A stretch of DNA of 64,000 bases. Source: an uncultured bacterium. GTDB taxonomy: Bacteria > Bacillota_I > Bacilli_A > RFN20 > CAG-826. Below, piece by piece: positions 22,582 to 51,080 of the stretch. Position 1 is the stretch's first letter. Every line of letters begins with the position of its first letter. The stretch covers positions 4,924 through 68,923 of the forward strand of contig CASFZJ010000002.1 in the NCBI GenBank assembly GCA_949299165.1, given 5' to 3'. Position numbers and translations under genes: made by a program. The notes beneath the pieces were generated by a model that was given only the letters and a program-made list of their open reading frames with translations, ran no database searches and was not told the origin of the DNA.

Positions 22582-23928
22582 TTAATTATGTGGAATTGCA
22601 TCTATTCTTTTATCAAAATTTGCTTGATTAGCAAGATTTTTAAACGAATTAGATACATTTATTGGTTCAACGAAAGAATAATTAATGCCGTTTTTTATAC
22701 AATCAGTAATTATTTTATCTTTCTCCGCAATCGTTAATTTGGACGTTCCAAATCCTATTTTCTTTTTCATATACTTAAATAAATTGCACGCCGCATTAAA
22801 ATCACGATCAATGGCGACGCCGCAATTGTCACATCTATAAATTCTATCATTTAAATCCAAGTTGTTTTTAATAGCACCGCACTTAACACATCTTTTAGAA
22901 CTAGGATAAAATTTTCCTGCTTCAACAAATACTCTGTCCGCTATCGAATTGCATTTGTTTTTAATAAGCACTTTTAAATTATTAAAGCCTATATCATTAT
23001 TTTTTCGAGAAAAAAACTTCTTTTGCATTAAATTATCGATTTCCAAATCTTCCATGCAAATACCATCAAAATTTCTAACTAGAACTGAAGTAACCTTATT
23101 ATTGTAATTCTCTCGTTTATTCAAAGCTTTTAAATAAAATTTCGCTAATTTTTGTTGCATTTTCAAATAATTATTTGATTTTTTATATGTTCCATCCTCT
23201 TGCATAACTAGTGACTTTCTTTGCAATTCCTTGTTTAAATGCTTTAAACGCCTTAAATTTTTATACAAGAATAAAGGAGCATCAATTACTAGTCCGCATG
23301 AAGTAGTAAGTGTATTTTTAAGGCCCAAATCAATTCCAATTGTTTTTCCGTTTCTCAAAAATTTGTAAGAGTGAGTAGCTTCGAAATAAGACTTAGGTAT
23401 TTTGAAAAGCATAGCTACATAATATTTGCCATCTGTTCTTTTAAAAGTGCAGGAAATTAATGTTCCATGAAAACGTAATTTATCCAATATTTTTATTGGT
23501 CCGCTTAACCCACTAAAGTATATGAAGTTTTTAACGCTACTTTCTTTGGCTCTTATAGAAACACTTCCTCCCTTTAAATAGAAAGCATTTGATAAATATT
23601 TTTTCTTAAACTTTAACTTTAGTAAACCGCCTTCTTTAGTTTTTGTTTTAGCGACGCGAACTGCCTTATTAAGATTTTGAAACACTTTATTTTCAAGATT
23701 GATATCAATCCCGTTTAAAAAATCGAATTCTTTTTTCTTTTTTAAATAAATATTTCTGATTAAGTCTCCATTTAACTTTTCTTTTTCCGTTTCACTTGCG
23801 TTATTAAAGTATTCAACTCCAAAGTTATAAATAAATCTCGCTTTCCCAAATAAATTCTCCAAAACTTCAATTTGAGACTTATTAGGATCTAATCTAACTT
23901 TTTGTGCTATATAAATAAATTCTTCCAT
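22582..23928 (-). CDS. tnpB: TnpB (OrfB_IS605) RNA-guided nuclease-type transposon protein with intact RuvC triad and zinc finger
   Basis: N-terminal HTH. RuvC-I IGIDLGLKN, RuvC-II ICMEDLEID, zinc finger CVKCG...CDNCG, RuvC-III AIDRDFNAACN. Confidence 0.9.
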   Translation of the reverse strand: MEEFIYIAQKVRLDPNKSQIEVLENLFGKARFIYNFGVEYFNNASETEKEKLNGDLIRNIYLKKKKEFDFLNGIDINLENKVFQNLNKAVRVAKTKTKEGGLLKLKFKKKYLSNAFYLKGGSVSIRAKESSVKNFIYFSGLSGPIKILDKLRFHGTLISCTFKRTDGKYYVAMLFKIPKSYFEATHSYKFLRNGKTIGIDLGLKNTLTTSCGLVIDAPLFLYKNLRRLKHLNKELQRKSLVMQEDGTYKKSNNYLKMQQKLAKFYLKALNKRENYNNKVTSVLVRNFDGICMEDLEIDNLMQKKFFSRKNNDIGFNNLKVLIKNKCNSIADRVFVEAGKFYPSSKRCVKCGAIKNNLDLNDRIYRCDNCGVAIDRDFNAACNLFKYMKKKIGFGTSKLTIAEKDKIITDCIKNGINYSFVEPINVSNSFKNLANQANFDKRIDAIPHN

Positions 23929-26726: not shown

Positions 26727-28142
26727 TTGGTAATAAATATGAATATTAAAGAGTTATTGTCTGAATTATTACAATTTTCAAAAGAAAGAGAATGGTTTGA
26801 ATTTAAAGAAAATTGGTTTGAACCAATTGCACTTGGTGAATATGTTTCTGCACTTTCAAATGCTGCAGCGTTGGTAGGAAAAGAATTTGCTTATTTCGTT
26901 TGGGGTGTTTCCGACAAAGAACATGCCTTGGTAGGTACTGAATTCGACCAATACCAAGATTATAAGAATGAACCATATATCAATTTTCTAAACAGGAATT
27001 TAAACCCAAGAGTCAAAATCGATTTTTTCGAAGATAATATCAATGGCAAGAGAATAGTTGTTTTAAGAATTGAATCTGCCAAAGATATTCCAACAGCATT
27101 TAATAGAGTCAGATATATTCGTATCGGTTCTTCGAAAGACACAATGGAAAAAAATCCAAGAATTGAGAAAGAATTATTTAGAATTTTAGAACATGGATAT
27201 CCAACGATAGTAAATACAAAATCTCAGTATAATGATTTAACTTTTAATAAGCTTTTTATGTATTATGGTTCAAAGGGAATATCGCTGAGAAAAGAAACAT
27301 TCAAGAAAAATTTATGTTTATTAACAAAAGACGGTTCTTATAATATTCTTGCTCAACTCCTTTCTGATAACTCGCACTTACCTCTTAGAGTCTCTATTTT
27401 TGAAGGCACAACCAAGGGATCGAATCTTTATTCGATTAAAGAATTTGGGTTTGACTGTATTCTCTATTCTTTAAAAAACCTTCTCGATTATGGTGATGTT
27501 TTAAATGTCATCCAATCTGATGAAACAAATAGAAAAGAAGAAAGAAAAGAAATCCCTTTGTTCGACATTAAATCTTACAATGAGGCGACAGTGAACGCTG
27601 TCCTTCATAACAAGTGGGTTGAAGGCAATGAACCTATGATTACTGTTTTTTCTGATCGAATTGAAATATTATCGAGAGGAACTATTGCTCCAGCTCAAAC
27701 GCTTGAAGGGTTTTATTTAGGAGAATCAGTACCAGTAAACGAAAAACTTTCCGAGATTTTTGCCCAGTTGAGGATAAGCGATAAATCTGGTAGAGGTGTG
27801 CCAAAAATCGTTGAAACATACAGTAGAAATGCTTTTCAGTTTAGAGATAATTCGATTGTAGTAACAATTCCTTTCAATTCGATTAAAAAAGTTGGTGATA
27901 AAATTGGTAATAACATTGGTGATAAACCTGTTATTACAAGAAAGCATGGATTAAATTTGACTAGAGAAAGAATACTTTCTGAAATGAGACATAATCCTAA
28001 CATTACCAAGTCTGAACTGGTCATTTTAATTGGAATCAGTGATACAGCAATCGATAACAACATTAGATATTTAAGAAATAACGGATATATAAAGCGTATT
28101 GGTGAAAATAAAAATGGTTATTGGGAGGTTATTAAACAATAA
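26727..28142 (+). CDS. AlbA_2 (Schlafen-like) domain protein with C-terminal histidine-kinase-like ATPase (HATPase_c_4-type) and wHTH
   Basis: The N-terminal FAYFVWGVSDKEH...ALVGT block matches the AlbA_2 divergent-AAA/Schlafen core. The C-terminal half is paralogous to ORF 49752-51080 (NAVLHNKW...SRG...GRGVPKI versus NAIVHNDW...SHG...GHGIPTI). Confidence 0.65.
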   Translation: MVINMNIKELLSELLQFSKEREWFEFKENWFEPIALGEYVSALSNAAALVGKEFAYFVWGVSDKEHALVGTEFDQYQDYKNEPYINFLNRNLNPRVKIDFFEDNINGKRIVVLRIESAKDIPTAFNRVRYIRIGSSKDTMEKNPRIEKELFRILEHGYPTIVNTKSQYNDLTFNKLFMYYGSKGISLRKETFKKNLCLLTKDGSYNILAQLLSDNSHLPLRVSIFEGTTKGSNLYSIKEFGFDCILYSLKNLLDYGDVLNVIQSDETNRKEERKEIPLFDIKSYNEATVNAVLHNKWVEGNEPMITVFSDRIEILSRGTIAPAQTLEGFYLGESVPVNEKLSEIFAQLRISDKSGRGVPKIVETYSRNAFQFRDNSIVVTIPFNSIKKVGDKIGNNIGDKPVITRKHGLNLTRERILSEMRHNPNITKSELVILIGISDTAIDNNIRYLRNNGYIKRIGENKNGYWEVIKQ

Positions 28143-35971: not shown

Positions 35972-38059
35972 ATGAAACATAAAAAGTTGGCTAGCCTATT
36001 GCTTTTTAGCACATTAACTTTTTCAGTTGTTGGATGTACAAATGTAGATAATGATCCAAATAAAATAATAAAATCAATTAATCTAACTTCAACTAGTGGT
36101 GATGAAGAAAGTGGCTTGACTTCTACTTACACTATTACTTTTTTAGATGGAACTACATATGAATTCACTGTTAAAAACGGAAAAGATGGGGAGCCAGGAA
36201 TTGAAGGAAAACCAGGACAAGATGGCCACACTCCTAAAATTGAAATAGGGGAAAACGGTAACTGGATAATAGATGATAAGGACACTGGAATAAAAGCGAC
36301 CGGAACGGATGGAAAAGATGGCATTTCGATTATATCTATTACAAAAACTTCGACTGAAGGTTTAATCGATACTTACACTATTACTTATAGTGATGGATCA
36401 ACTTCTACCTTTAATGTTGTTAATGGAAAAGATGGAGAACAAGGTATTGCTGGCACTCCTGGCAAAGATGGCCATACACCAGAAATTAAAATAGGAGAGA
36501 ACGGTAATTGGATAATTGATAATGAAGATACCGGGATAAAAGCTGTTGGCACTAACGGTAATGATGGAAAAGATGGCGCTAATGGAGAGGATGGTTTATC
36601 CGCTTATGAAATCTATATTAAATATCATCCAGAATATGAAGGTAGCGAAGAAGATTGGATTAATGATTTAATTAACAATCGCTTAAATGATGATTATAAA
36701 GAATATTGCACTGTCACTTTAAATCCAAATGGTGGCACGATTGAAACGCCACTTACATTTAAAGTAAAACACGGTAGTTATATTGGCGAACTTCCTACTC
36801 CAATAAAAGGGAATAGATATTTTATGGGATGGTATGCTGGCACTTCAGAATATGATAATCCAGTTAATTCATTGTTCGTCGTTGAAAACGATGTAACATT
36901 AACTGCAAAGTGGGATTCAGCTGTCATTACTCTTTTAGATCATAACAACAACCCTATAAAAGAAGTTCTTTATTACGGACGTCAAAAAATTGAAAACCTA
37001 AATATTCCCATTGAAAATCTTACTTATAATGGTTACCAATATTTTTACGACTTTTATCCTTATATTACCCCTCAAATTGTGCCTGATTTAACACTTAAAC
37101 CAACTTATGCGTTTGATTTAGCCAAAACAAGAGCTGATTTTGGGATTGTGAACGATGAAGAGTTTACTATCCGAGTCAGAAGATATAGTTTTGACCCAAC
37201 CGAACTTATTATCGAAATCATTTTAGATTCCTATTCGAAAGACACATTAACTTTCCCGAATGAATATGAAGGTTTAAAAATCGGTTCCTTAATATTAAAT
37301 TATTGTTCATTTAAAAATTTAACACTTCCTAATGAGATGAATTTTTTACATTTTAATAATTTTGAAAATCAATCTCTAAAAATTAAAACAAAAATATTAA
37401 ATGAATTAGGCGTATCATTTTCAAATACCTTAGAAAATTTGGATTTAAGTGAATGTGAATTTGACCAAAATAATCCTTCAATTTCTTTTAATGATTTAAA
37501 CGCTTTAAAAACTCTAGTCTTTCCTCCATATAACGAAAACAACGAGCAAAAAATGCTTACAATTAATATGAACAGAGTAGCATATTACGACAATCTCGAT
37601 TATGTTAATTTTAAAGACTTATCGAATTATATTCTAGAAATTAACATAATTAACACTGATGGATTAAATATAAATAATACCGAAATATACAATGCTAGAC
37701 TTACAATGAATTCGGATACGCTTTATTTCGACGATCAGGGCGAAAGTTTTATTCTTAACAATTGTCGCTTTTATGGAAACCTCGAAATTTATGGACAATA
37801 TTTAAAGCAAATTGATTTAACTGGTACTACTTCAATACAAAATCTTAAACTTACTACACCAAACTTGGAAGTATTAGATTTAAGTAATATCACTTATATT
37901 TCTCTGCCTGATGTTATGTTTACGGATGAATTAACTCCAAATCTAACCGATATTTATTTTGGTGGAAGCGAACAATATCGGAACTCACTCCATATAGATA
38001 GCGGTAACACTAAACTATTTGATGGTTCAGTTAATATTCACTTCAATTCAATAAAATAA
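35972..38059 (+). CDS. Surface lipoprotein with collagen-like G-x-x stretches, Flg_new (Listeria-Bacteroides) repeat and C-terminal leucine-rich repeats
   Basis: Lipobox VVGC. Duplicated 82-aa modules containing GKDGEPGIEGKPGQDG / GKDGEQGIAGTPGKDG. Flg_new-like block CTVTLNPNGG...YFMGWYAG...VTLTAKW. LRR-like LxxLxLxxN repeats in the last approximately 300 aa. Confidence 0.65.
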   Translation: MKHKKLASLLLFSTLTFSVVGCTNVDNDPNKIIKSINLTSTSGDEESGLTSTYTITFLDGTTYEFTVKNGKDGEPGIEGKPGQDGHTPKIEIGENGNWIIDDKDTGIKATGTDGKDGISIISITKTSTEGLIDTYTITYSDGSTSTFNVVNGKDGEQGIAGTPGKDGHTPEIKIGENGNWIIDNEDTGIKAVGTNGNDGKDGANGEDGLSAYEIYIKYHPEYEGSEEDWINDLINNRLNDDYKEYCTVTLNPNGGTIETPLTFKVKHGSYIGELPTPIKGNRYFMGWYAGTSEYDNPVNSLFVVENDVTLTAKWDSAVITLLDHNNNPIKEVLYYGRQKIENLNIPIENLTYNGYQYFYDFYPYITPQIVPDLTLKPTYAFDLAKTRADFGIVNDEEFTIRVRRYSFDPTELIIEIILDSYSKDTLTFPNEYEGLKIGSLILNYCSFKNLTLPNEMNFLHFNNFENQSLKIKTKILNELGVSFSNTLENLDLSECEFDQNNPSISFNDLNALKTLVFPPYNENNEQKMLTINMNRVAYYDNLDYVNFKDLSNYILEINIINTDGLNINNTEIYNARLTMNSDTLYFDDQGESFILNNCRFYGNLEIYGQYLKQIDLTGTTSIQNLKLTTPNLEVLDLSNITYISLPDVMFTDELTPNLTDIYFGGSEQYRNSLHIDSGNTKLFDGSVNIHFNSIK
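36116..36590 (+). repeat. Internal 246-bp (82-aa) tandem duplication within the surface lipoprotein gene
   Basis: Unit 1 at 36116-36361 and unit 2 at 36362-36590, about 75% identical at the protein level (LTSTYTITFLDGTTYEFTVKNGKDG... versus LIDTYTITYSDGSTSTFNVVNGKDG...). Confidence 0.7.
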
Positions 38060-38154: not shown

Positions 38155-41130
38155 TTAAGGCTGAATAGGATTTCCTATATACAAAACATAATTCTTTAAA
38201 ATCATGAATAAGTCAACTGGATTATTGCCATCAGTTGAACCAGAAGCATTAAATATTCTTCCAGTTGTGCTACTACCACTATATTCATAATAAGCAATAG
38301 TTTGCCCAGTAACTGCATCAATAATTGGATAAGTTCTGGCAATCTTGTTGTCTGTGGTTAAATTAAAATAGTCATTTAAAGCTTTTAAGAAAGTAACATT
38401 CGGATTTTTGACATCATTTTCATTTGTAGTAAGCATCTCACCAAGATAAGTTTGGCCTTCCCAGATTAATGTCTTTTTTGTATAACTTCCTTGTGGTTCA
38501 CCAGTAATCAAGTCGTCCCCGGTTTGTTTATGGCTTACAAATGTTTTGCTTTCTTCGTCGCTAACTTTGAATTCAAAAGTACCAGGATTTTCATCAAATA
38601 GTTTAATAAAACTATTTGTGTGACGATTGATGTACATGTTGTAAACTCTAACAGTATTGCCATTAGGGCGTTGATAACTACCATTTGATACAAGCATAAT
38701 GTCATAAACTCCACGAGAGTAGAAATCTTTAAGTTTAAAGCCTTGTCTTTCTATAGTAGTTGTTGATCCATCGCTATTTTTAATAGTTCCAGTAGCATTC
38801 GCATTTTGAATAAACATGTCTTCTGATTTATCAACAATCGTGTTTTGGGAATAAAGCTCTATAGTTACTCCATCAGCTACTTCGTAAGATACATAATTAT
38901 TTGGAATAGAAAGACCACCTAAGTTCTTATCATTCCCATAATCATCAAAATTAGTTACAACATGCAATGAATCGTTAATGTATTGATTCGAGAATCTAAT
39001 TTGGAAATAAAGATGATTAACATATCTAAAGTCTGCGTTTTGAATGATATAAACATATGGGGAAGTAATTGTACGTTTGGTTGATTCTATTTGATTTCCA
39101 TTATCATCTTTATTATATGTTTCCACTCCACTGGCTATAACAAAGTTATCAGCGTTAATCATACCATTATGAATGCTTTCATCAATTGCGTTCCAATCTT
39201 GATCGGCTGTAGGAACGCCTTTTTCATCTTCTTTAATATCAATATTAGAAACAAGTCTCATGTTGGTGACTTTTTCGAGGTAGAGAGCAATAGGACGTTC
39301 TTGATAAGATGATTTTAAATCTAAACTATTGCACATATCTTTATAGTAATCGCCACTACCTATATTAGAATAAGTTAAAAGATTTTTCTCTCGAAGTTGG
39401 GTAAAAGCGCTATCCGCACTAACAGCATAATTGCCAATAGCACTTAAATTTTGCCATTCTTGTGTTTTTTCCTTAGGGAAATCTCTAGTATTATAATCGC
39501 TATTGTTACCTATAAAGAAATAGAACGTGTATAAGCCTTCACCATATCCATCAATAAAATCGTCAATTTGAGCAGAAGTTATTGTAAATTGTTGATACCA
39601 AGTTCCGCTAAATTCTCTATCATATGATGGACAAATATAAAAAGTTATAGATTCATAGTAATTTTTCTTTAACTCGAGATTTTTTAAAACAGCATAATTT
39701 ACATCATAATGAGCGGTTCTCCAATCTTCAATAACCGGCCCCGGCCAGGCATCATATTGAAAGGAATACTTATCAGAACAAGTATCACTAGAATAAGTTA
39801 ATTTTGTATTAATTGTAGCTTTTTCAACAGTAGGCACATTATTTTTATAAACATATTCAGCTTTAATCGCATCTCTGGCGCCTTCATTTAAATTTTTTGT
39901 AGTTGTATTTTTTCCATTACTAAAAACAGGATAAAGTCTTATAACACCATTTTCATCATATGAATCAGGATTTTGCATAATATCGAAAATGTTATCGACG
40001 TCTTTTGCGGTAAATCCATTTACAGCTGTTGTATAAGTCGATGCACTATTCAAATTATAAGTCCAAACATTAGATGTGAAATCAAAATAACCGTTATTAT
40101 CAAAACTAGCATTTAATAAGGTTGGCAAAATCTCACTTAAAGTGTCGGGAGTTAAATTGCCATTAACGGTAATTTTAATTGGTAAATATCTACTCCCACC
40201 AGTAAAATCACTAGGGATAAGATTCATATTATTTGAGTCTTCCCTATCATAAAAACTAGTCCAAAAGCCAAAACGATCGTTACGATATTGTCTTCTTTTT
40301 TGGAATTGTTCTTCATATCTTGTCTTATAACCATAATTGTCATTTTCTTCAGCAGAAAATAAATCTGATTGCGAACCATTAATAAATTTTTTTACTTGAC
40401 TATTTAATGGATCAGTCATACGAGCAATATGAAATTCATCAGTCGGAAAATTTAAATCAATTGAATAAGTATCGTTACCATAAATAGGCGAAAAAAATTC
40501 TTGTTTTTTATTAAGACCAGAATAATTCCCCTGAGAAGCACTATTAAAACTAGGATGATTAATAACGTATGGGTCGTTGCGATGATAAGACTGATTTTCT
40601 ACACCAGTATCTCTATTGAGAGTACCATCAGGCGCCAAATAATAAATACGATTATAATTCAAACTACTCGCTAAAAGACCGTTATATGTCTCATATTGAT
40701 TAGAACCATTTTGTGAACTAAAACTATTTCCGTTAAAACTAACCCCACGTCTCCCATCTGTAACAATATCATACATTACATCCCCATTTTGATCTGTTCT
40801 AGGAATACCAAAATCATCAAGTACTACTTCGTTATAACCAAAAACATTTTCCGGATCAGTAATTCCATCATGATAAAATTCGTTATATAAAGTAGATGGG
40901 AAGAAAATATAGGTATAGGTTCTATTTAGATTGCGTTTGGCACCAAATTCATAGTTTTCCAATATGTTATCAGCAAAGACTTCATCATCACTTCCCGTAG
41001 TTGTTGAGTTTTCGATAATGACTTCGTCTTTTGCTCCTTTGCCAAGATAAAACATTGAAAAACCAGTTGCAATAGCTGCAACAAATGTAATACCAATTAA
41101 AGAAAATAATAATTTAAATTTGTTAAACAT
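38155..41130 (-). CDS. Large secreted/cell-surface protein (991 aa) of unknown function, last gene of the SipW/TasA-like operon
   Basis: The N-terminal hydrophobic segment with ATGFSMFYLG resembles the SipW-cognate signal class. N/S/T/Y-rich, no known domain recognised. Confidence 0.45.
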   Translation of the reverse strand: MFNKFKLLFSLIGITFVAAIATGFSMFYLGKGAKDEVIIENSTTTGSDDEVFADNILENYEFGAKRNLNRTYTYIFFPSTLYNEFYHDGITDPENVFGYNEVVLDDFGIPRTDQNGDVMYDIVTDGRRGVSFNGNSFSSQNGSNQYETYNGLLASSLNYNRIYYLAPDGTLNRDTGVENQSYHRNDPYVINHPSFNSASQGNYSGLNKKQEFFSPIYGNDTYSIDLNFPTDEFHIARMTDPLNSQVKKFINGSQSDLFSAEENDNYGYKTRYEEQFQKRRQYRNDRFGFWTSFYDREDSNNMNLIPSDFTGGSRYLPIKITVNGNLTPDTLSEILPTLLNASFDNNGYFDFTSNVWTYNLNSASTYTTAVNGFTAKDVDNIFDIMQNPDSYDENGVIRLYPVFSNGKNTTTKNLNEGARDAIKAEYVYKNNVPTVEKATINTKLTYSSDTCSDKYSFQYDAWPGPVIEDWRTAHYDVNYAVLKNLELKKNYYESITFYICPSYDREFSGTWYQQFTITSAQIDDFIDGYGEGLYTFYFFIGNNSDYNTRDFPKEKTQEWQNLSAIGNYAVSADSAFTQLREKNLLTYSNIGSGDYYKDMCNSLDLKSSYQERPIALYLEKVTNMRLVSNIDIKEDEKGVPTADQDWNAIDESIHNGMINADNFVIASGVETYNKDDNGNQIESTKRTITSPYVYIIQNADFRYVNHLYFQIRFSNQYINDSLHVVTNFDDYGNDKNLGGLSIPNNYVSYEVADGVTIELYSQNTIVDKSEDMFIQNANATGTIKNSDGSTTTIERQGFKLKDFYSRGVYDIMLVSNGSYQRPNGNTVRVYNMYINRHTNSFIKLFDENPGTFEFKVSDEESKTFVSHKQTGDDLITGEPQGSYTKKTLIWEGQTYLGEMLTTNENDVKNPNVTFLKALNDYFNLTTDNKIARTYPIIDAVTGQTIAYYEYSGSSTTGRIFNASGSTDGNNPVDLFMILKNYVLYIGNPIQP

Positions 41131-41145
41131 TTAATCATTACTCCT

Positions 41146-41928
41146 TTATATATAAGAGAAATAGCTAACTAAACGAATTCTAAATTCCCATTTGCCTTCA
41201 CTAGATGCATGAGATAAAGCATAAAACTTATCAAAATCTAATGGTTTCTTATCAGTGTTTTCATAACGTAAGAATTGATTTAAAGCAACTGAGTATTGAA
41301 TGTATTTTGTCTCATATGGTGTTTCACCACTAGAAACAGGAAACTGATCATTTCCTTCAGTGATTTCAAAATTAAGAGTAGTTTCAGCATATGATTCATT
41401 ATCAGTAATAAAGAAATAATAATCACCTTGGTTATTAATTTGTCGATAACCATAATTTGGATTTCTTAAGTTACTAGATATTTCTAGATAATCTTCCATT
41501 GGTTGACTTTGATCACCATTAGTAAGTAAATCAAACGCAATCCCAACATGTAATTTTAAACCAGTAACATTTTCATCAACTAAATCAGGATCTTCATAAT
41601 AATATCTAAAGATAAATGTTGAATCGGTGTCGGTTGTTGTTAAATCGTTTTGTTCATCGACAACTTTATTTGTATAAAAAGTGATTCCATCAAATAAACT
41701 AGATTCTCCAAGTGTTCCTTCTGAAAATACTAAAAGAGATGGGGATTGAACAATAACAAATGTGCCATCTTCAACTAAATTTGTAACTTTAACTTCGTTG
41801 CTAACTTTGTCGTTGGCTTTAGGAAGATCGCCATTAAAAGCCCATAAAGCAAAACCAGTTCCAATTATTGTCGCAACTCCAAGCGGCGCTACAACTAGCC
41901 CTATTAATTTATAAGGAGAAAACATCAT
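41146..41928 (-). CDS. TasA/camelysin-like secreted protein (SipW-cognate signal peptide)
   Basis: N-terminus LIGLVVAPLGVATIIGTGFALWAFN matches the TasA-type signal pattern (hydrophobic core, GxG, AxF); 260 aa. Confidence 0.5.
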   Translation of the reverse strand: MMFSPYKLIGLVVAPLGVATIIGTGFALWAFNGDLPKANDKVSNEVKVTNLVEDGTFVIVQSPSLLVFSEGTLGESSLFDGITFYTNKVVDEQNDLTTTDTDSTFIFRYYYEDPDLVDENVTGLKLHVGIAFDLLTNGDQSQPMEDYLEISSNLRNPNYGYRQINNQGDYYFFITDNESYAETTLNFEITEGNDQFPVSSGETPYETKYIQYSVALNQFLRYENTDKKPLDFDKFYALSHASSEGKWEFRIRLVSYFSYI

Positions 41929-42983
41929 ATTTTCTCCACCACCCTTTTCATTTTCTTGCTTCTGATATCAAGAATAACTTTTTTCGCATCAATCTCTTTA
42001 GCGATTTCTTGAATACGTTTGTCGTAAGCTTTTTCGATGCAGCTTTCAGTTATTTGATAAGATAATAAGAATAAGAATGCAGCAAGTATTGCGATTAAAC
42101 CAATATTGCTTTGAACATATATAATTAAGACACCAAGTCCATAGTTTTCAAATCCATTAAATTCACCAACAATTTGATCAAAATCAACGACAAGTTCATA
42201 ACCTAGTGATTCAGTGTTGGCATCACCTCTAAACATATAAGTTGTAATGCCAGTTTCTGGATTAGTATAAATTCTAATTAATCTATGAATGATTAAAACA
42301 CCATCGTTATTTTTGAAACCATAAATGTTATAGAGTTTCATTTCGCTTTGTTCGTGAACTCTGTTTAATCCAATTAAGGAATATTGAGTAATTTGATCTT
42401 CAGGATCAGTTAAGCCTTCATCAAATAAATAATCATTTTCTTCATTTGCCGTTTCCATTGATCCTGTTAAAACTGTAACAAGCGTTGTATCACCAATATA
42501 AACTTCTTGATTGTTCAAGCGGAAAGTTAAAGCGACTGCAAAGAAACAAAGGAAAATAACATAAAAAATAGCGAAGAAGACATTAGACATAACTTTATAT
42601 TTCTTTGATTTTCTTTTTTCTTCAAAGATTGCTTCTAGAACAGTTGTTGGTTCGCTAGGTTGCTCAACTTGTTTTTCACCAACAAGGACGAACGTTTTTA
42701 CGTTTTCCATATCTTGAAGCATTACATAATCAGGTTCATTAGCATTTTTAAAATGTTCAACATCTGAAATTTTTAAATCTTCTTCAGCTCTTTTCTTTAT
42801 AATATCTTTATATTTTTTTCTTAAACTATCTTCTAATTTCTTGTCTTCATGACCATATGAAATATGTTTGACTTTGTAAAATCCATAAATAGCAAAAAGA
42901 ATAGCAAACATTAAAGCTAATCCAATAATGACTGCTATTGATACATAAAAAGCTACATTACCTAATATTTCTTGGCCAGACAT
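41925..42983 (-). CDS. SipW-like type I signal peptidase (archaeal/ER-type S26B) with an approximately 150-aa N-terminal extension
   Basis: Catalytic boxes VLTGSMET (SGSMEP-like), IIHRLI (box D, THRV-like) and FRGDANTE (box E). TM anchors at both ends; overlaps the downstream gene start (ATGA). Confidence 0.65.
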   Translation of the reverse strand: MSGQEILGNVAFYVSIAVIIGLALMFAILFAIYGFYKVKHISYGHEDKKLEDSLRKKYKDIIKKRAEEDLKISDVEHFKNANEPDYVMLQDMENVKTFVLVGEKQVEQPSEPTTVLEAIFEEKRKSKKYKVMSNVFFAIFYVIFLCFFAVALTFRLNNQEVYIGDTTLVTVLTGSMETANEENDYLFDEGLTDPEDQITQYSLIGLNRVHEQSEMKLYNIYGFKNNDGVLIIHRLIRIYTNPETGITTYMFRGDANTESLGYELVVDFDQIVGEFNGFENYGLGVLIIYVQSNIGLIAILAAFLFLLSYQITESCIEKAYDKRIQEIAKEIDAKKVILDIRSKKMKRVVEKI

Positions 42984-43067
42984 CTAATAAATCCTTTAAT
43001 AGATATTGAAATGTATGGGACATGGAGTCCCATACATAAGTTAGTTAAATAAAGTTAATGAGAATAA

Positions 43068-43919
43068 TTAAGCACCTGGTGTCAAATCTGCAACTAAACC
43101 AATTGAATAGTTGATAACAAAATGTTCACCCACAGGTTTATTCACAGTTAAATCGTGAACCATTGCATTATATTCATAAGTTGTTGTTGGTTTACCGCCA
43201 GTTAAATAACCGCCCTCGTCTGTTGTTTTTTCTTTATATGTAAGATAAGAATTTACTAAACCACCATTTTCTTCTGCTTCTTTTGTAGCGACATCCATTG
43301 TTAAAGTCCAAGTATCACTAGTTTCTGTAGTGTAATATTCTAAACTTGGATAGTATACGTAAGAATAGGTAGTATAAACATCGCCTTTTGTTTCATCTGT
43401 AATGCCGAATTTCACATCAGTTCCGAAACCTTCTACAATTCTTGTAACGCTAAATTCAGCATCTTGATTAACTTCAACATACTTTAATAAAGGATTTGAA
43501 ATTTGAATATCAACTCTAATTTCAATCTTTAATTCGTTTGCTTTTAATCTTGCTAAATTTAATGTTGCATCATCATAAGTAGCATCAATTTTTAAATCAA
43601 AGGCAGTTTGTGCTGTGGCATCAGTTGCGTCAGCATAATTTGTAAAGAAAATACCTCTATCTGTGTAATTACCTGCATTAACATCTGCACCGCCTTGATC
43701 TAAGACTAATTTAGTGCCTTCTTTAACATCACTTGCATCATTGAGAACAATTTCTAAATTACTTGTTGTAATTGTATCGCCGAAATCAACAGCGATGCCG
43801 TTTTTTCCATCATCGCCAATGACTGTATCACTAAAATACCATGCACTAAAACCACTACCGACGAGTGTTGCGCATCCAACGATAGGTAAAACTACTGCTA
43901 AAAATTTTCTTTTCATCAT
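43068..43919 (-). CDS. TasA/camelysin-like secreted protein (SipW-cognate signal peptide), first gene of the operon
   Basis: N-terminus MMKRKFLAVVLPIVGCATLVGSGFSAWYFSDTV closely follows the TasA/CalY signal consensus (...LVGGGTxAxFxD); 283 aa, T/D/Y-rich. Confidence 0.55.
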   Translation of the reverse strand: MMKRKFLAVVLPIVGCATLVGSGFSAWYFSDTVIGDDGKNGIAVDFGDTITTSNLEIVLNDASDVKEGTKLVLDQGGADVNAGNYTDRGIFFTNYADATDATAQTAFDLKIDATYDDATLNLARLKANELKIEIRVDIQISNPLLKYVEVNQDAEFSVTRIVEGFGTDVKFGITDETKGDVYTTYSYVYYPSLEYYTTETSDTWTLTMDVATKEAEENGGLVNSYLTYKEKTTDEGGYLTGGKPTTTYEYNAMVHDLTVNKPVGEHFVINYSIGLVADLTPGA

Positions 43920-43994
43920 AAATTTTCCTCATTTCTATTTCTGCTAATAATTTTAATGAAATTAAAAACTTTCAAAAATATTAAAAAGTAAAGA

Positions 43995-49751: not shown

Positions 49752-51080
49752 TTGTGTTTTATGGATTTATTTGAGTCAAACAGAATAGAATTTAAAGCAA
49801 AAATTACTGATCAACTTGTACGTGAGATAGTCGCGTTTTTGAACACTGATGGCGGAAAAATATATATAGGTATTAGCGATGATGGCAAAGTTATTGGTAC
49901 AAAAAATATTGATGAATCGCTTAGAATCATATCTGATATTGTTTGCTCTCAAATTGAACCATCTCCAATAGAATTAGTAAAAAGTGATATTCATTTTTTA
50001 GAGAACCAACCAGTTATTGTGGTTAATGTTGATAAAGGGACTGAATCAATTTATTGTATTAAAAAATATGGTTTTTCAAGTGTAGGCTGCCCAATAAGAG
50101 TTGGATCTACTTGCCGAGAAATGAGTCAAGAGCAAGTTCAATACAGATATAAAATGCGCTATTCTGATGATGATTTGTTAGTTTCATCACCGACAAACTT
50201 ACCTGAACTTTCGTTTGTTACTTTAAAAAATTATTATTCAAATATTGGCCTTAAATTAAATGACGAAAATTTCAAAAACAACCTCAATCTCCTGAACAAA
50301 AAAGGCCAATATAATAAATTAGCAGAATTAGTTTCGGATAATAGTCGCTATTCATTTATCTTTGTTAAGTTTGAAGGAGCAAATAAGGCTTCACTTTCAC
50401 AAAGAAGCAACTATGGAAACAAATCTATATTATTTGCTTATGAACAAATGAAAAATCGAATTGAAGCTGAAAACATCTGCATCTCTGATACAACCACAAG
50501 ACCAAGAATCGATAAATTTCTATATAACATCGAATCTGTTGATGAAGCCATTATCAATGCAATAGTCCACAATGATTGGAGTGTTGGAGAACCACAAGTT
50601 GCTTTTTTTAACAATAGAATTGAGATTATCTCTCATGGTGGTTTACCACATAATTTAACTAAGGAAGAATACTTTGCTGGAATTACAAAACCTAGAAATG
50701 CCGCTTTAATGAAAATATTTTCTGATTTAGATATCGCAGATAATACTGGACATGGCATTCCAACTATTATTGAACATTATGGTAAAGATGTTTTTGATAT
50801 TGAACCAAATCACATTATAATAAGCATTCCGTTTGATAAAGATATACTAGAAAGATTCAAAAGAGAGCATACCGATATAATCAATTTTGATTTGAATGAA
50901 CCAGAAAAGTTGATATTAGAACAACTTTCACTTGACCCAACAACTACTGCACAAAAAATCGCATTAAAACTCAAAAAAAGTCGAAGAACTATCGAGCGTT
51001 ATTTAAAATCCTTACAAGCAAAAGATTATATTGAACGAGTTGGAACCATACGAAATGGTTATTGGAAAATAATAAAGTAA
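49752..51080 (+). CDS. AlbA_2 (Schlafen-like) domain protein with C-terminal histidine-kinase-like ATPase and wHTH (paralog of 26727-28142)
   Basis: N-terminal AFLNTDGGKIYIGISDDGKVIGT AlbA_2 core; C-terminal block paralogous to the first copy. Likely ATG start at 49761. Confidence 0.65.
   Translation: MCFMDLFESNRIEFKAKITDQLVREIVAFLNTDGGKIYIGISDDGKVIGTKNIDESLRIISDIVCSQIEPSPIELVKSDIHFLENQPVIVVNVDKGTESIYCIKKYGFSSVGCPIRVGSTCREMSQEQVQYRYKMRYSDDDLLVSSPTNLPELSFVTLKNYYSNIGLKLNDENFKNNLNLLNKKGQYNKLAELVSDNSRYSFIFVKFEGANKASLSQRSNYGNKSILFAYEQMKNRIEAENICISDTTTRPRIDKFLYNIESVDEAIINAIVHNDWSVGEPQVAFFNNRIEIISHGGLPHNLTKEEYFAGITKPRNAALMKIFSDLDIADNTGHGIPTIIEHYGKDVFDIEPNHIIISIPFDKDILERFKREHTDIINFDLNEPEKLILEQLSLDPTTTAQKIALKLKKSRRTIERYLKSLQAKDYIERVGTIRNGYWKIIK

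Follow-up and report, generated by a model that had tools for sequence, protein, structure and literature searches.

A four-gene operon encoding a divergent signal peptidase and three exported proteins is found at positions 38155-43919 of the DNA analyzed here, a stretch of 64,000 nucleotides (nt) of contig CASFZJ010000002.1 from an uncultured RFN20 bacterium (Bacillota). This whole stretch is referred to as the window, and all coordinates are positions within it. The genes, named P1, peptidase, P3 and P4, are co-directional and were delimited from the open reading frame (ORF) list and by reading of the junctions. Together they very probably encode a core system consisting of a dedicated S26B peptidase and three cognate exported substrates. 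The four genes are as follows:

43068-43919, minus strand: P1, operon gene 1, 283 amino acids (aa), with a cognate N-terminal signal and a predicted all-beta mature domain, family unassigned
41925-42983, minus strand: peptidase, operon gene 2, 352 aa, a divergent S26B (Sec11/SipW-type) signal peptidase
41146-41928, minus strand: P3, operon gene 3, 260 aa, a P1 paralogue with the same signal
38155-41130, minus strand: P4, operon gene 4, 991 aa, a large protein with the same signal class and the start MFNKFKLLFSLIGITFVAAIATGFSMFYL

P1 and the peptidase gene are separated by 84 nt, the peptidase gene and P3 overlap by 4 nt (ATGA), and P3 and P4 are separated by 15 nt. The initial annotation, made from the DNA alone, had described four tightly packed minus-strand genes, and the ORFs, the overlap and the short gaps were all found as described. 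The overlap of the P3 start with the peptidase stop suggests translational coupling. Because the group is flanked by a divergent DUF5662 gene upstream (start 44275, plus strand) and by a convergent lipoprotein gene downstream (end 38059, plus strand), the operon consists of exactly four genes.

The peptidase is a divergent member of the S26B clade, recognized as significant by E-value only. It matches the NCBIfam models NF046067 (SipW; E-value: 4.8e-12, 45.8 bits, cut-off 190) and TIGR02228 (sigpep_I_arch; E-value: 6.6e-6, 26.1 bits, cut-off 51.85), and no Pfam peptidase model, including S24/S26, matches it at E ≤ 1. A database search returned 106 homologous peptidase clusters, all without a name; none carries the expected precomputed peptidase domain, and four carry PF03239 only. 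A profile of 29 homologues compared with PDB sequences matched human SEC11C (E-value: 1e-6) and human SEC11A (E-value: 5e-5). The predicted catalytic boxes and the N-terminal extension, which contains an additional transmembrane (TM) helix, are located as follows:

42450-42467, minus strand: TGSMET box, residues 173-178, with the predicted nucleophile Ser175; T173, S175 and M176 invariant in the 29 homologues
42276-42293, minus strand: IIHRLI box, residues 231-236, with the predicted general base His233; H233 and R234 invariant; aligned to the VHR box of SEC11A/C
42210-42233, minus strand: FRGDANTE box, residues 251-258, with Asp254; G253, D254 and N256 invariant; aligned to the GDNN box of SEC11
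42600-42983, minus strand: N-terminal extension, residues 1-128, with the extra TM helix and a K/E-rich loop; conserved in the 29 homologues

The protein has the Ser box, the His (not Lys) box and the G-D-x-N box of S26B enzymes at the places given in the initial annotation (residues 173, 231 and 251). The Ser/His dyad is intact on alignment: Ser175, His233 and Asp254 are invariant in the 29 homologues, the identity of which falls to 26%, and E263 is likewise invariant. A Lys in place of the box His would mark a bacterial P-type signal peptidase. Judged by these residues, the enzyme is of the endoplasmic reticulum (ER)/archaeal type, with a Ser/His(/Asp) arrangement where LepB has a Ser/Lys dyad. 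The scoring stretch of the alignment with SEC11C takes in the His and GDxN boxes; because the GSME box is paired only in a separate, non-significant stretch (0.6 bits), the assignment of TGSMET rests on the conserved motif.

Three TM segments are predicted from hydropathy, at approximately residues 4-38, 129-158 and 281-316. About 128 residues precede the membrane helix equivalent to that of SipW (the initial annotation had put this extension at about 150 aa), and because they are conserved in the homologues they are real and not a start-codon artefact. Within this region V18 is invariant and F26, K39 and I41 are present in at least 90% of the 29 homologues. A Y-K-x-K-x-I-x-x-G-x-E-D motif follows the extra TM helix, and the K/E-rich loop is probably cytoplasmic. 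Approximately 18 additional residues, including the invariant N183, Y185, Q200 and S202, lie between the Ser and His boxes. Long C-terminal extensions are found in some homologues: P0047, P0086 (528 aa), P0093-P0103 (~444 aa) and a protein at L046:7677-10031 (784 aa). In P0047 the cognate signal recurs within the extension (..LVGAGFCSWRF..), which looks like a fusion or read-through with the downstream substrate gene.

P1, P3 and P4 start in the same way, with a K/R-rich n-region and a hydrophobic stretch of ~19-23 residues followed by the motif G-x-G-F-[S/A]-x-[W/F]-x-F. Cleavage is predicted between A27 and L28 in P3 and between S25 and M26 in P4; in P1 the signal is as follows:

43833-43919, minus strand: P1 signal region, residues 1-29, MMKRKFLAVVLPIVGCATLVGSGFSAWYF, with predicted cleavage between S25 and A26

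The association of this signal with the peptidase is exclusive. In the window, the motif is present in exactly three of 56 ORFs, P1, P3 and P4. In 44 related loci it is present in 103 of 466 ORFs, 103 of which are within the operon and 0 outside. Alignment of the P1 and P3 profiles with hhalign (97% probability, E-value: 6.7e-11) covers 87 columns, comprising the signal and the first ~60 mature residues; that of P1 and P4 (E-value: 1.2e-10) covers the first 32 residues only. The N-terminal similarity of the three proteins far exceeds chance. P3 had been assigned to the same signal class as P1 from the start, and P4 had been described as an N/S/T/Y-rich protein of 991 aa with a related N-terminus; the alignments and the composition of P4 (34% N+S+T+Y) agree with both descriptions. 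The P1 signal region is close to invariant in 86 homologues that average 32% identity, a near-invariance to which an ascertainment effect contributes, because the homologues were retrieved by a word-based search. Among 90 small paralogues, the motif positions are occupied at frequencies (G(-3) 96%, G(-1) 97%, F(0) 93%, W(+3) 87%, F(+5) 95%) that are partly conditioned by the regular expression used in the search.

This signal resembles that of proteins processed by SipW. The TasA cleavage site, G-G-T-W-A↓A-F, was confirmed against the 8AUR chain, the first residue of which is A28. In a non-significant hhalign register, the S25/A26 junction of the P1 protein falls on the A27/A28 site of TasA, with F24 at substrate position P2 and W27 at substrate position P2'. 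In TasA, W at position P2 and F at position P2' hinder LepB, and SipW is the dedicated enzyme (PMC10269814). The features of a SipW-cognate signal that are present here are a basic n-region, a G-rich turn, a small residue at substrate position P1, aromatic residues at positions P2 and P2' and an adjoining S26B gene. TIGR04088, the SipW-cognate signal model, was not among the NCBIfam matches of P1, P3 and P4 (E ≤ 1) or of the 86 P1 relatives (E ≤ 10), in searches where HMMER filters may drop very short, weak matches. The initial annotation quoted the N-terminus of P1 exactly and read it as a SipW-cognate signal of the TasA/CalY type. That reading stands as a motif-level resemblance (G-x-G-F-S↓A-W compared with G-G-T-W-A↓A-F), judged by eye and from the non-significant alignment, and not as a TIGR04088 match.

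Two other readings of the N-termini were considered and set aside. A type IV pilin-like signal was rejected on the grounds that the motif follows the hydrophobic segment instead of preceding it and that pilus assembly genes are absent from the operon. A lipobox-like L-P-I-V-G-C lies inside the P1 signal (residues 11-16; 43872-43889), and all 86 retrieved relatives keep its G15 and C16. P1 was nonetheless not classified primarily as a lipoprotein. Neither residue is fixed in orthologues of other genera, where A, T, G or L stands in place of Cys16; P3 and P4 lack a Cys at the corresponding position; and the conserved motif comes only after the lipobox-like sequence. Dual processing of P1 by Lsp and the S26B enzyme seems unlikely.

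The AlphaFold model of P1 (pLDDT 82, pTM 0.79) has an all-beta domain with one helix. Residues 1-38 are disordered in the model, including residues 26-38 that follow the predicted cleavage site. When this model was compared with the PDB using Foldseek, matches were obtained only at TM 0.2-0.3, with no close relative. These matches (influenza haemagglutinin heads, Fbs1 and CBMs) were set aside as generic beta-sandwich noise, and TasA is missing from the 60 that were listed. Peptidase_M73/TasA did not match P1, P3 or P4 (E ≤ 1) or any of the 86 P1 relatives (E ≤ 10), TasA was not found with the P1 profile among PDB sequences at E ≤ 10, and hhalign aligned P1 with TasA over the signal only (E-value: 0.04, probability 1.3%). 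A TasA-type jelly-roll fold was looked for in P1 and P3 and not found; the P1 model is not recognizably TasA-like. The earlier description of P1 and P3 as two TasA-like subunits is not supported by these results. A match to TIGR02973 (NapE) in 63 of the 86 P1 relatives (best E-value: 0.031) was read as similarity between hydrophobic segments and not as homology.

P1 and P3 are paralogues, because their 87 aligned columns cover the signal and ~60 mature residues; the aligned region includes LDQGG..GI.F in one protein and FSEG..GI.F in the other. P3 has only 26 homologues and matches no Pfam or NCBIfam family (E ≤ 1). The AlphaFold model of P4 (pLDDT 80.8, pTM 0.80) has one helix at residues 2-28, a disordered segment at residues 27-52 and no close PDB relative, and TasA is not in its listed matches. 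P4 has no recognizable domain, its matches to Pfam and NCBIfam models do not rise above noise, and a search of this protein specifically for a von Willebrand A domain found none. Relatives of P4 are rare (63 representatives among 1.84 billion). P4 is a putative adhesin, tip or anchor component. At the level of these comparisons, the substrate folds appear to be new.

Relatives of the operon were sought in one genome per species (species-representative metagenome-assembled genomes), using a narrower peptidase alignment than the 29-sequence one. The scan found 50 loci, in gut samples, labelled as uncultured Mollicutes or Bacilli, Ca. Onthovivens, Ca. Enterosoma, Ca. Caccosoma or Anaeroplasmataceae; of the named taxa, Ca. 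Enterosoma and Ca. Caccosoma are members of the order RFN20. The gene order is small-peptidase-small-large in ~30 of the 50 loci, and the others are permutations, expansions or loci cut by contig ends. The large gene precedes the peptidase gene in 8 loci, with the order small-large-peptidase-small in L023, L024, L028, L030, L033 and L047 and small-large-peptidase, with no motif-bearing small gene downstream, in L041 and L043. Loci L032, L034, L035 and L040 have 3-5 small paralogues. Contig CASGAD010000014.1 encodes two peptidase paralogues (L007 and L050), each adjoining its own large protein with a related N-terminal motif, which suggests several peptidase-substrate systems per genome. The initial annotation had proposed a distinct system in a non-Bacillus lineage, and the scan bears this out as a conserved, lineage-specific unit of RFN20-type gut Bacilli.

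The more distant second peptidase paralogue, on the contig of L007 and L050 and also in L049, is 312 aa long and adjoins a ~1020-1040-aa protein and a large lipoprotein. The ~1020-1040-aa protein starts ...GALVGTGYA[MT]WHISGG. Some 'cleanbin' records that contain the operon (e.g. L010, L011, L018 and L021) are titled Bacteroides uniformis, Faecalibacterium prausnitzii, Alistipes or Hallerella, and these titles are probably taxonomic mislabels of bins. An origin of the operon from a mobile element or phage was rejected, as the chromosomal neighbours DUF1836, GalE and DUF5662 are the same in independent samples.

Variation among near-conspecific strains was assessed by comparing the window with two contigs from other samples that carry the syntenic locus (L053 and L054). 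Identity to the window is as follows:

GalE: 97-99%
DUF1836: 95-98%
peptidase: 98%
DUF5662: 89-92%
P3: 82-87%
P4: 77-78%
P1: 41-45% (window 43068-43919 compared with L053:7001-7852 and L054:7001-7819)

P1 is hypervariable, and its signal is not: 28 of the first 30 residues are identical in L053, and L054 is the same except for one leading Met fewer. In other species (L001-L003), the peptidase is the most conserved component (60-63% identity), compared with 28-37% for P1. The P1 pattern suggests that the mature part of the protein, and only that part, is under diversifying selection or has undergone allele replacement. Read from the sequences, variation of this kind behind a frozen signal is what would mark an exposed major subunit that is immunodominant or targeted by phages.

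A working model of the system can be outlined in the following terms. P1, P3 and P4 would be exported by Sec and held in the membrane by their long, highly conserved N-terminal hydrophobic segments. The three-TM S26B peptidase (Ser175/His233/Asp254) would recognize the G-x-G-F-[S/A]↓x-[W/F]-x-F junction and cut after the small residue. The aromatic residues of this junction would occupy positions P2 and P2', the pattern that makes TasA a poor substrate for LepB-type enzymes. The freed mature proteins, starting with x-W-Y-F followed by ~10 disordered residues, would assemble at the cell surface, where P1 would be the abundant, exposed and antigenically variable major subunit. In this model P3 would have a minor or initiating role, and P4 would act as the large adhesin or anchor. 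Overall, a surface-assembly system with a dedicated peptidase and P1 as exposed major subunit is the best explanation of the locus and is held with moderate confidence.

The closest analogue of the operon appears to be sipW-bsaA-bsaB-bsaC of C. perfringens rather than tapA-sipW-tasA of B. subtilis. In C. perfringens, the small subunit polymerizes by N-terminal strand donation while membrane-anchored (PMC11580942). In both loci, the gene for an ER-type signal peptidase is accompanied by those for two small paralogous secreted proteins and a large one (PMC11580942), the substrate signals in both are thought to be removed by the peptidase of the operon, and in both the small subunit has a disordered N-terminal segment. 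There are also differences: unlike P1 and P3, BsaA and BsaB are detectable members of the TasA family; a von Willebrand A domain is present in BsaC, whereas P4 has no recognizable domain; the peptidase gene is first in C. perfringens and second here; the RFN20 peptidase has the extra TM helix and loop; and no conserved Asn/Lys/Glu isopeptide triad was identified in the RFN20 proteins. By analogy with TasA and BsaA, formation of a filament through N-terminal strand donation is plausible but tentative, and the conserved x-W-Y-F start and the ~10-residue disordered stretch of the mature proteins would fit this mechanism. A broader proposal, that the operon represents a class of surface filaments in RFN20 gut Bacilli, independent of sortase, of the cell wall and of TasA, in which novel-fold subunits are freed from signal-anchors, polymerize through x-W-Y-F and show antigenic variation of P1, is possible but doubtful.

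Several points weigh against the dedicated-peptidase reading and its filament extension. The peptidase scores below the curated cut-off of every family model (NF046067, TIGR02228 and Pfam S24/S26), and its activity is deduced from conserved residues. The invariance of the P1 signal and the motif frequencies are in part products of how the relatives were retrieved, as stated above. The status of LepB beyond the window also bears on whether the peptidase is dedicated. Strand donation, like amyloid-like or fibre formation in general, is an argument by analogy, and because the P1 fold is not recognizably TasA-like, the analogy rests only on the conserved N-terminal segment.

Of the alternatives, the strongest is a non-filamentous surface coat, or a defined adhesin complex of P1, P3 and P4, tethered by an uncleaved subunit or by P4. 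Each operon has one large gene, in keeping with such a complex, and membrane-tethered coats are plausible because the lineage has no sortases and part of it is predicted to have no peptidoglycan. The evidence does not separate a coat or complex from a fibre, but the 3-5 small paralogues of L032, L034, L035 and L040 recall sets of major and minor pilins, as does the conserved x-W-Y-F mature N-terminus of all components. A coat or complex is considered unlikely. In type IV pilin systems, one dedicated membrane peptidase processes paralogous substrates that have a frozen hydrophobic N-terminus and variable globular domains. The major subunit undergoes antigenic variation, and an aspartic protease cuts at a motif located ahead of the hydrophobic segment. 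The dedicated peptidase, frozen N-terminus and variable major subunit of the RFN20 operon are similar by analogy only; here the motif follows the hydrophobic segment, the enzyme is of the Ser/His S26B type and the operon has no assembly ATPase or platform genes.

Alternatively, the peptidase could be the housekeeping signal peptidase of a reduced genome, and its neighbours ordinary abundant secreted proteins that form no dedicated system. The lineage has small genomes and shows mycoplasma-like reduction (PMC10868615), no LepB-type enzyme was seen within the 64-kb window, and the other exported proteins of the window are lipoproteins, which need Lsp rather than signal peptidase I. This explanation is improbable in view of the confinement of the motif to the operon (103 within and 0 outside, 44 loci), the persistence of the signal-peptidase linkage through rearrangements of gene order, the two paralogues of CASGAD010000014.1 that each lie beside their own large protein with a related motif, and the extreme conservation of the signal, which argues for specific recognition. 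Among solved structures, the best relative of the peptidase is Sec11 (PDB 7P2P and 7P2Q; E-value: 1e-6), whose VHR and GDNN boxes align with those of the peptidase and which also has a GSME box. Sec11 acts as a general signal peptidase within a multi-subunit complex, unlike the RFN20 enzyme, which is encoded with its own three substrates and is ~18 residues longer between the Ser and His boxes.

A true TasA/camelysin biofilm-fibre operon, in which P1 and P3 would be very remote TasA homologues that form amyloid-like or donor-strand fibres from a jelly-roll fold, is more improbable still. As in B. subtilis tapA-sipW-tasA and B. cereus sipW-tasA-calY, the gene of a dedicated Ser/His signal peptidase lies between or beside those of its substrates, and the order small-peptidase-small is that of tapA-sipW-tasA. 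The signal is similar to that of TasA and CalY at the motif level, with aromatic residues at positions P2 and P2' (T-W-A↓A-F in TasA and G-F-S↓A-W here), and P1 is all-beta with a disordered N-terminal extension. SipW is ~190 aa long and has two TM helices; the RFN20 enzyme, by contrast, has 352 aa and three predicted TM segments and scores 45.8 bits against the SipW cut-off of 190. No similarity to TasA, TapA or CalY is detectable in P1, P3 and P4, either in sequence or in fold, there is an additional 991-aa substrate, and the host lineage has no sortases and in part no peptidoglycan. The BsaA/TasA family is very divergent and widespread (PMC11580942), which would favour remote homology, but the searches at E ≤ 1 (window proteins) and E ≤ 10 (86 relatives) gave no M73/TasA or TIGR04088 match, the P1 profile did not reach TasA in the PDB sequences and hhalign paired P1 with TasA over the signal only, at 1.3% probability.

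In Streptococcus pyogenes pilus loci, the signal-peptidase homologue SipA/LepA is a non-catalytic assembly chaperone. That the RFN20 peptidase is mainly such a chaperone and the substrate N-termini permanent membrane anchors is very improbable: the extra TM helix and cytoplasmic loop (conserved and unexplained), the long substrate hydrophobic segments (~19-23 residues, conserved like TM anchors) and the single helix predicted by AF2 for P4 residues 2-28 would suit this role, but the family-wide invariance of Ser175, His233, Asp254 and their boxes is unexpected for a purely non-catalytic homologue.

Further sequence elements may bear on expression of the operon. A GAGGA ribosome-binding site was read 8 nt ahead of the P1 ATG, and two additional features were found:

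43947-43975, minus strand: promoter-like site TTGAAA-17-AATTAT upstream of P1, 9/12 matches by consensus scan only (weak evidence)
43011-43037, minus strand: 11-bp perfect hairpin in the 84-nt spacer between P1 and the peptidase gene, followed by a weak U-rich tract, found by folding

The spacer folds at -26.5 kcal/mol (z = -4.1), and 0 of 200 shuffled sequences were equally stable. Equally strong hairpins with different stem sequences are present at the same spacer position in L001-L003, L031 and L042; loci with short spacers between P1 and the peptidase gene have no hairpin there. This candidate attenuator or mRNA stabilizer may raise the output of P1 over that of the downstream genes.

The window has a G+C content of ~29%, and its other genes are a chromosomal housekeeping set of a Bacillota organism, including EzrA, RmlA/B, GalE and an ABC-FtsX transporter. 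The convergent neighbour of the operon (35972-38059, plus strand) encodes a 695-aa lipoprotein with the signal ..FSVVGC. This protein has collagen-flanked surface repeats (PF19079), a Listeria-Bacteroides repeat (PF09479) and weak LRR matches, and is a probable further surface adhesin. Elsewhere in the window are a 448-aa IS605 OrfB/TnpB-type protein (22582-23928, minus strand; OrfB_IS605 and Cas12f1-like TNB domain) and two paralogous Schlafen AlbA_2 and HATPase_c_4 proteins (26727-28142 and 49752-51080, both plus strand), the second with an additional winged-helix domain.

That a SipW-type peptidase can be paired with a cognate signal is already known. What is new here is the set of substrates, the enzyme with its extension, the lineage that hosts them and the hypervariability of P1, and no earlier description of the system in Mollicutes or RFN20 was found in the literature. 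RFN20 and related 'Mollicutes-like' Bacilli are common, uncultured inhabitants of the human and animal gut, and their cell surface is almost undescribed. Because the lineage is reported to have no sortases throughout, and part of it, including some families, is predicted to have no peptidoglycan (PMC10868615), how it displays adhesins is an open question. The operon is a concrete candidate for such display. It is conserved in the lineage and unannotated, the only Pfam domain being an unrelated family on four peptidase relatives and the components being nameless, and its P1 protein bears the signature of a dominant exposed antigen. With this operon, the principle of a dedicated ER-type peptidase and cognate signal would also cover substrates of new folds and an enzyme carrying an additional membrane module, and G-x-G-F-S-x-W-x-F after a hydrophobic stretch provides a simple motif for finding more members. 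If the filament reading is true, mycoplasma-like gut commensals would have, in functional terms, a 'pilus' that arose independently of TasA.

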